Part shown: positions 8,923 through 9,534 of the stretch, one piece after another | Position numbering within the stretch: the first letter of the stretch is position 1 | Layout of the letters: each line of letters begins with the position of its first letter | Position numbers and translations under genes: made by a program | The notes under the pieces: generated by a model | What the model was told of the DNA's origin: nothing | Database searches by the model: none | What the model saw: only the letters and a program-made list of their open reading frames with translations | Origin: Dictyostelium discoideum | Taxonomy: Eukaryota | DNA: 64,000 bases | Reading direction: 5' to 3' | Assembly: GCA_000004695.1 (NCBI GenBank) | Contig: CM000154.2 | Location: 4,576,001-4,640,000, forward strand

Positions 8923-9534
8923 AATCTAAATCATTTGCAATTTTTTTAATTGAATCAATATTTGCAAAATTACAAGTACCCAATAATAATGAACCATCTG
9001 GAGTTAAGAAATCTTTTGATTCTTCAACATAACGTCTTAATAAAACATAACCATTAAGTGTTTTCTCTTATTGTAATTCATTAATAATTGAATTTTTAAA
9101 TTGTTGCATGGATGATTCCAAAAAATGAATTTAAATTTATTACAATTTGGTTTGTGTTGTTGTTGTTCCAATAAAGTATTATATAAATCACTTTTATGAA
9201 TACCACCAAATGGAATTTCATTATTGTTGTTTTTAAAATTTGGAAATGTAATATTAACAGCATTTGGATTAATATCAACACCGGTTACAGTTGCTTTTGC
9301 AAATTTTGAAACTGATAAAGAGATTAAACCAGAGCCAACGCCAACCTATAAGAAACAATCACCACTTTGCACTATTGTTTCTGATAATTGTTTGGCAAAC
9401 CATTTGTTTTCTGGGAAATGCAATGGACTAAAAACATTTGGATGTAGTGTTATATTTAATTCACCAATTGATGTTTTTTCACTTCCATCATTTTTAATTT
9501 TATACATTAATTCAAATAATCTTTTTTGTTCCAT
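8923..9534 (-). pseudogene. HemK2/N6AMT1-like SAM-dependent methyltransferase, apparently disabled by an in-frame TAG and a -1 frameshift.
   Basis: N-terminal part (..NVFSPLHFPENKWFAKQLSETIVQSGDCFL) stops at TAG. Motif I (VGVGSGLISLSV) and post-I (VTGVDINPNAV) follow immediately in the same frame. The NPPY-like motif reads FWNHPC. The C-terminal homology block (NGYVLLRRYVEESKDFLTPDGSLLLGT, like HemK2 GRNGREVMDRFFPLVPDLLSPRGLFYLVT) is in another frame. Stop at 8925..8923. Confidence 0.5.

Follow-up and report, generated by a model that had tools for sequence, protein, structure and literature searches.

A probable unitary pseudogene of an MTS-type methyltransferase at the Dictyostelium discoideum AX4 locus DDB_G0290773

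The remnant and its genomic setting

The window, i.e., the whole 64-kb stretch of Dictyostelium discoideum DNA analyzed here, has a G+C content of 21.9% and bears long poly(A)/poly(T) tracts as well as homopolymer repeats within coding sequence. On its minus strand, positions 8799–9589 hold a 791-bp remnant of a methyltransferase gene—the AX4 locus DDB_G0290773—whose ancestor was an intronless gene of 792 bp and 263 codons. The locus is hence larger than the interval 8923–9534 that had been outlined in a sequence-only reading of this DNA. Its ancestral start is the ATG at 9587–9589 (−), which opens the reading MQQIEFYE, aligns with the starts of five intact orthologues, and is preceded by long poly(A). 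Its ancestral stop is the TAA at 8799–8801 (−), as placed by DNA alignment.

Two landmarks of a methyltransferase can still be read on the minus strand. The SAM-binding loop of motif I, VGVGSG, lies at 9328–9345 and contains the invariant residues G83, G85, and G87. Further downstream, the remnant of motif IV, F-W-N-H-P, lies at 9109–9123 and comprises F155, W156, N157, H158, and P159—all of them invariant—as the family's counterpart of the NPPY motif. Beyond this point the reading changes frame: the block NGYVLLRRYVEESKDFLTPDGSLLLGT is found in a frame that is shifted by −1 relative to the upstream one, and a third frame carries one more coding-like stretch, ESLNLLNNVTEIYYILKFVKKNQNSILQIQR, which had gone unnoted in the sequence-only reading and runs into a stop. 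A translation stitched together from these three frames scores 31.9 bits against the Pfam MTS profile PF05175 (E = 1.3e-7; gathering score 23) and 34.7 bits against PrmA PF06325 (cut-off 22), the latter match covering only profile positions 155–210 of 296. The nearest intact orthologue is found with E = 2e-128 in a protein search, a homology far above chance. On the DNA level, window positions 9589..8799 are 95.4% identical to positions 6001–6792 of the intact orthologous locus L001, and the flanking genes in L001, L002, L004, L005, and L006 are the same as those in the window.

It had been proposed to look for an intact paralogue elsewhere. None was found by tblastn within the 64-kb window, where the best off-target match has E = 0.3, and none appeared among the AX4 proteins in a large protein search, which returned only DDB_G0290773 for AX4 and did recover fungal relatives at 35–40% identity. 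A literature search gave no papers mentioning DDB_G0290773 and nothing relevant that describes the new assemblies from dictyostelids.

A large neighbor gene on the minus strand bears a coding low-complexity repeat that is rich in Thr and Pro (TTTTPTTTT), with matches of 88–97% identity at window positions 6890–7090, 23305–23480, 26705–26895, and 62550–62730. Apparently, these are simple-sequence repeats that coding regions have in common, and not a mobile element. The D. citrinum orthologue of the repeat-bearing gene encodes Sec7 domains. Antisense to the pseudogene, at 9224–9562 (+), runs a 112-aa ORF for which homology support is absent and which is probably a chance ORF. A tRNA scan of window positions 1–20000 gave no tRNA genes.

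Seven lesions and the loss of constraint

The remnant was compared base by base with the loci L001–L006 in a DNA alignment of window 9589..8799. Hereby, five syntenic orthologues (L001, L003, L004, L005, and L006) form the intact reference set, and L002, from the assembly ACTFIT, carries the window-type allele. Seven lesions could be mapped in this way, where two had been counted from the sequence alone: three frameshifts (+1, −1, and −1), three nonsense changes, and one 3-bp deletion. All of them are missing from the five intact loci, and they are hence derived on the window lineage.

Starting from the 5′ end of the gene, the first lesion is one additional A in the run at 9547–9552 (−)—A6 vs A5 in the intact genes—which causes a frameshift after codon 13 and severs the first 18 residues including the invariant Trp17; L002 is identical to the window at this point. 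The second lesion is a nonsense change of GAG to TAG at Glu81 (9346–9348, −), the glutamate of L-E-V-G-x-G-S-G. It stands directly before motif I, so that the frame reads SGDCFL-stop-VGVGSGLISL. This TAG had been recognized in the sequence-only reading and is indeed real and in frame on the minus strand, but it occupies 9348–9346 and not 9341–9343, five bases away.

The third lesion is the loss of one G from the TGG codon of Trp160 between 9108 and 9107 (−), where TGG CAA became TG CAA, and gives a −1 frameshift. It is this deletion that opens the frame of NGYVLLRRYVEESKDFLTPDGSLLLGT. The earlier reading had correctly seen a different frame and a shift of −1, but had placed the shift at the A run 9061–9066, whereas the deletion lies ~45 nt upstream. 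Its reading path switched frames after 9068 and thereby skipped the second stop, which is the fourth lesion: a nonsense change of TCA to TAA at Ser173 (9068–9070, −) in the post-frameshift frame. The lost G also bears on the sequence NHPC, which had been regarded as a degenerate version of a catalytic NPPY. N-H-P is invariant in the family, and the C is a by-product of the deletion.

The remaining lesions lie further toward the 3′ end of the gene. The fifth is a 3-bp deletion between 9057 and 9056 (−), which takes the TGA of CTTGATAAT and with it Asp178, turning TLDNGY into TLNGY. The sixth is the loss of one T at 8908–8910 (−; T3 vs T4 in the intact genes), which constitutes the third frameshift (IIV/LRKG) and creates the TAA at 8908–8906 on which the annotated models end. 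The seventh is a nonsense change of CAA to TAA at Gln232 (8895–8897, −) in the final frame. An AAC insertion within an Asn run, at 9229–9231, is in-frame and harmless. In an alignment of 28 homologues, Glu81 is invariant (28/28), as are Asp178 and Trp17, and W160 is found in at least 90%.

Two of the three frameshifts sit in A or T homopolymer runs—an error-prone context—and sequencing or assembly errors that mask an intact gene had been put forward as an alternative to a pseudogene. This alternative is effectively refuted by the chromosome-level assembly ACTFIT (GCA_054883475.1), which is independent and matches the window at every one of the 791 bp. All seven lesions, both homopolymer frameshifts among them, recur there unchanged. 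With this identity of 100% over the gene in a second D. discoideum assembly, the lesions are not sequencing errors. Moreover, three of them are substitutions to stops, a kind of change by which assembly errors do not usually show themselves; of the others, one removes 3 bp and one removes a G that lies outside long homopolymers. The excess of nonsynonymous changes on the window lineage described below argues against a hidden intact gene as well. We therefore consider an intact gene behind erroneous sequence to be highly improbable. Over the surrounding 11.7 kb, L002 and the window show 2 SNPs and 7 indel events between them, and L002 may represent a close laboratory relative of the window strain; it hence proves that the lesions are reproducible, not that they are fixed across wild D. 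discoideum. The differences between the two are mostly of homopolymer length (40 indel columns vs 2 SNPs in 11.7 kb), and the poly(A) directly upstream of the ancestral ATG (window 9590–9640) is 11 nt longer than in L002.

Formally, an in-frame TAG could also be decoded, and stop readthrough or reassignment together with ribosomal frameshifting would then yield a full-length enzyme; nothing specific points to such programmed recoding. For this, stops of two types would have to be read through at three sites in all, and three frameshifts (+1, −1, and −1) would have to follow each other within 790 nt; Asp178 would still be missing from the product. In the orthologues, ordinary sense codons stand where the three stops lie, and none of these frameshifts is present. 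With these sense codons and with frameshifts in both directions, recoding or an alternative genetic code was rejected, and its probability appears negligible.

The substitutions on the window lineage point in the same direction as the lesions. A three-lineage parsimony count assigns 14 nonsynonymous and 3 stop changes vs 6 synonymous ones to the window lineage (74% non-synonymous), where random mutation is expected to give 81%. For the two intact lineages the same count gives 4:7 and 10:11, and these pooled (14:18) differ from the 17:6 of the window lineage with p = 0.03 in a Fisher test. Polarization with D. dimigraforme and D. citrinum as outgroups gives 10 nonsynonymous and 2 nonsense changes vs 4 synonymous ones on the window lineage (12:4) and 2:7 on the L001 lineage (Fisher p = 0.017). 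Measured against the 81% expected at random, the window lineage cannot be told apart (p = 0.52), and the L001 lineage differs (p = 0.0002). The counts are small (p = 0.017–0.03), but all go in the same direction, and the substitutions on the window lineage look unconstrained.

Judged by these comparisons, the locus is very probably an ordinary unitary—that is, non-processed and in-place—pseudogene of an intronless methyltransferase gene of ~263 residues. It shows syntenic homology without hallmarks of retroposition, its disruptions are derived and reproducible, and its constraint is relaxed. The ancestor belonged to the "methyltransferase small domain" (MTS) superfamily of class I, SAM-dependent enzymes, and we propose that its gene became dispensable in the lineage leading to the AX4-type strains of D. 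discoideum. The three frameshifts, the three new stops, and the loss of Asp178 then arose, along with further substitutions in near-neutral proportions. A full-length product can no longer be made, and function was presumably lost. The call of a pseudogene made from the sequence alone is thereby borne out by the seven derived lesions, their reproduction in an independent assembly, and the relaxed substitution pattern. The pseudogene is more thoroughly decayed than had been seen at that point, and otherwise ordinary.

Annotated gene models

The AX4 protein of DDB_G0290773 (P0006, UniProt Q54FL8, 137 aa) can be reconstructed exactly from the window DNA, which identifies the window as AX4-type D. 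discoideum sequence; its exons lie at 9534–9436, 9345–9192, and 9066–8906 on the minus strand. The intact orthologue proteins start 18 residues upstream of the Met of this model. Its "intron 1" (9346–9435, −; GTTTTT...TATAG) is 90 nt long, and its 3′ end lies on the TAG of the second lesion itself; it consists of the conserved sequence FSPLHFPE.KWFAKQL...FLE, a stretch that belongs to the coding region of the intronless orthologues. The second annotated intron, "intron 2" (9067–9191, −; GTGATT...ATAAG), as reconstructed on the window, is 125 nt long and takes out motif IV together with the third and fourth lesions, i.e., the G deletion and the TAA at 9070–9068. The model from ACTFIT (P0005, 158 aa, L002:6001–6629) bridges the TAG by a 27-nt "intron 1" instead, corresponding to window 9372–9346. 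This is implausibly short for a spliceosomal intron and clearly a pipeline artefact.

Taken at face value, the annotation would describe a real gene, spliced to a truncated protein of 137 aa with a residual or new role, e.g., in SAM binding or regulation. GT...AG boundaries are present and give an open frame of 137 aa, and both NCBI and UniProt carry the model as a protein. Yet the supposed introns correspond to stretches that are conserved and coding in each of the intact intronless orthologues, and they end exactly on or around lesions. Their donors (GTTTTT and GTGATT) are weak, their base composition resembles that of coding sequence, with a GC content of 33% for intron 1, and the second annotation of the same DNA picked a different intron. 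The orthologue genes are single-exon ORFs, with a gene length of 3 × aa + 3, and introns therefore cannot account for the interruptions; with the interrupted segments being conserved coding sequence, they were rejected as their source.

An AF2 model built for the intact protein (pLDDT 88.5, pTM 0.88) shows what the truncated product would lack. Compared with this model, the AX4 product misses strand β1 (78–82), the invariant D133, strand β4 together with motif IV (151–157), and the last two C-terminal strands, which is predicted to make a Rossmann-type fold impossible. We thus regard a genuine spliced protein as very improbable, and infer that the 137-aa protein of AX4 and the 158-aa protein of ACTFIT are gene-prediction artefacts whose "introns" bridge lesions.

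The unitary pseudogene proposed here resembles others that were mis-annotated as spliced genes: a single-copy gene would have decayed in place, several disabling mutations are found, and introns were invented by the annotation. Unlike in those cases, the parent family itself is uncharacterized, and nothing else about the locus is unusual. The main value of this result lies in annotation, in that DDB_G0290773 (Q54FL8) and its 158-aa counterpart in the reference proteomes should be flagged as a pseudogene.

The ancestral family and its distribution

Full-length relatives of 240–267 aa were found in a protein search in isolates that bear the name D. discoideum or D. cf. discoideum (P0001, P0035, and P0036), in D. 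dimigraforme, D. citrinum, D. purpureum, and Polysphondylium violaceum, and—at 35–45% identity—in many fungi. The intact proteins read SFLEVGVGSG at motif I and FIFWNHPWQQFKNSIINELQSEKTLDNGYVLLRRY further on. Throughout the alignment of 28 homologues, E81, G83, G85, and G87 are invariant. Motif IV of the family is F-W-N-H-P-W: F-W-N-H-P is invariant, with N, H, and P in 28/28 sequences each, and the final W occurs in at least 90%. N-H-P-W is the family's own motif IV, of the type [D/N]-x-P-aromatic. This motif type is characteristic of N-acting methyltransferases of the MTS and HemK classes. As N-H-P-W takes the place of NPPY, the ancestor was probably a SAM-dependent N-methyltransferase with an amino or amide nitrogen as its target.

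Besides matching the stitched translation, PF05175 (MTS) is among the precomputed domains of the orthologues. In Foldseek, the AF2 model of the intact protein finds the carbamoyl N-methyltransferase Asc-Orf2 (9L4Q) first (E = 7e-12) and N6AMT1/KMT9 next, at identities of 16–22% and a TM score of ~0.7 when normalized to the target; matches to 6H1D, 6KMR, and 6PED lie at ~1e-10. The predicted structure is a class I Rossmann-type fold with a G-x-G-x-G loop. Searched against the PDB, the single sequence P0001 gets no further than bacterial HemK, with Thermotoga maritima HemK as its best match (3e-5, over the N-terminal half), and the family profile finds GenN best (7e-13) and also MJ0882, RsmC, and HemK, with N6AMT1 at 1e-7. 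The NCBIfam equivalog cut-offs are all missed, and widely.

A well-known group to compare is HemK2/N6AMT1/KMT9/Mtq2 (TIGR00537), the eRF1 glutamine-N5 and histone lysine methyltransferase, which is an obligate heterodimer with Trm112 and methylates the glutamine of the eRF1 GGQ motif or H4K12. The likeness to this group lies in the class I MTS fold, with Foldseek values of E ~1e-10 and target-normalized TM scores of 0.67–0.72, and in the shared motif I LEVGxGSG. An hhalign comparison of the family with human N6AMT1 gives a probability of 96.9% and E = 1.7e-10 over 161 columns, and sets FWNHPWQ opposite VFNPPYVV, so that motif IV falls into the same columns in both. The N6AMT1 sequence used here is presumed to be the human one; its length of 214 aa agrees with 6KHS_A. 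On the other hand, identity is only ~21–25%, and the aligned columns read N-H-P-W in the family in place of the NPPY of HemK2/N6AMT1/Mtq2. The family bears an additional conserved N-terminal helix (with Trp17) and a block HPxV(Y/F)SP..FPE..W. Against TIGR00537 with its cut-off of 87, the orthologue P0001 reaches 36.7 bits and the relative P0016 reaches 72.9 bits. By these profile and model comparisons, the family is best described as a remote, uncharacterized relative of HemK2/N6AMT1 within the MTS superfamily and not as a member. The label "HemK2/N6AMT1-like" given in the sequence-only reading hence holds at the superfamily level, but not below it.

With the gentamicin 3″-N-methyltransferase GenN (5U4T and 5TYQ), motifs I to IV can be aligned, F-N-S-P standing opposite W-N-H-P, and Asc-Orf2 as the top Foldseek match shows target-normalized TM scores of 0.71–0.75. 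These MTS-type natural-product enzymes all methylate nitrogen, and their identity to the family is 16% or partial. In contrast to them, the pseudogene locus has no biosynthetic-cluster context and counts a Sec7-domain gene among its neighbors. For bacterial HemK/PrmC, PrmA, and RsmC, the stitched translation scores above the gathering thresholds of Pfam MTS and PrmA, the match being limited to the SAM-binding half; for TIGR00406 (PrmA), 33.6 bits compare with a cut-off of 183, and the similarity is confined to the SAM-binding core.

The gene is intact in the group-4 relatives, in D. purpureum, and in Polysphondylium; it is therefore old in Dictyostelia, and its loss falls on the AX4-type lineage. 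An enzyme that has been kept in close relatives, in D. purpureum, and in Polysphondylium is hence missing from the lineage of D. discoideum that serves as the laboratory standard. This absence matters only for the study of an uncharacterized methyltransferase family and leaves current understanding unchallenged. Going further, the parent family, with its F-W-N-H-P-W and HPxV(Y/F)SP..FPE..W signatures, might form a distinct uncharacterized N-methyltransferase clade of dictyostelids and scattered fungi, for which AX4-type strains would be a natural knock-out, with the gene persisting in sibling lineages that go by the name of D. discoideum or D. cf. discoideum. We consider this possible, but rather doubtful. 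If it were true, it would provide a ready-made comparative system for finding the substrate of the family. In a weaker variant, the truncated spliced product of AX4 would really be made and serve a new role.

Some homologues come from JGI metagenomes (L007 and L008) and bear bacterial-style names such as "RsmC" or "methylase of release factors." Neighbor genes on these contigs are called in pieces—a sugar transporter, for example, in four—and look eukaryote-like. The contigs are probably intron-bearing fungal DNA rather than bacterial, and no bacterial members of the family are claimed. With gene calls this fragmented, the genomic context of the metagenome homologues was uninformative as a clue to function.

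Within the reference set, L005 (ACTFIR, GCA_054859385.1; 3001–3711 and ~80 nt upstream) shows a 1-bp frameshift of its own in an A run (WQMEQK/RLF). The frameshifted run reads MQQIEFYEMSKIEKDIWQMEQKDYLN up to a stop, and the annotated product starts from an internal Met, has 236 aa, and misses the invariant Trp17. Either an early lesion of independent origin or an assembly error in the homopolymer could account for this frameshift. L005 and L001 (ACTFIW), both labelled Dictyostelium discoideum, are 87–95% identical to window positions 2503–14800, compared with 99.6% for L002. Judged by this divergence of 5–13% across the locus, ACTFIW and ACTFIR probably represent a lineage separate from that of the window, and the label "Dictyostelium discoideum" seems to cover deeply diverged lineages.
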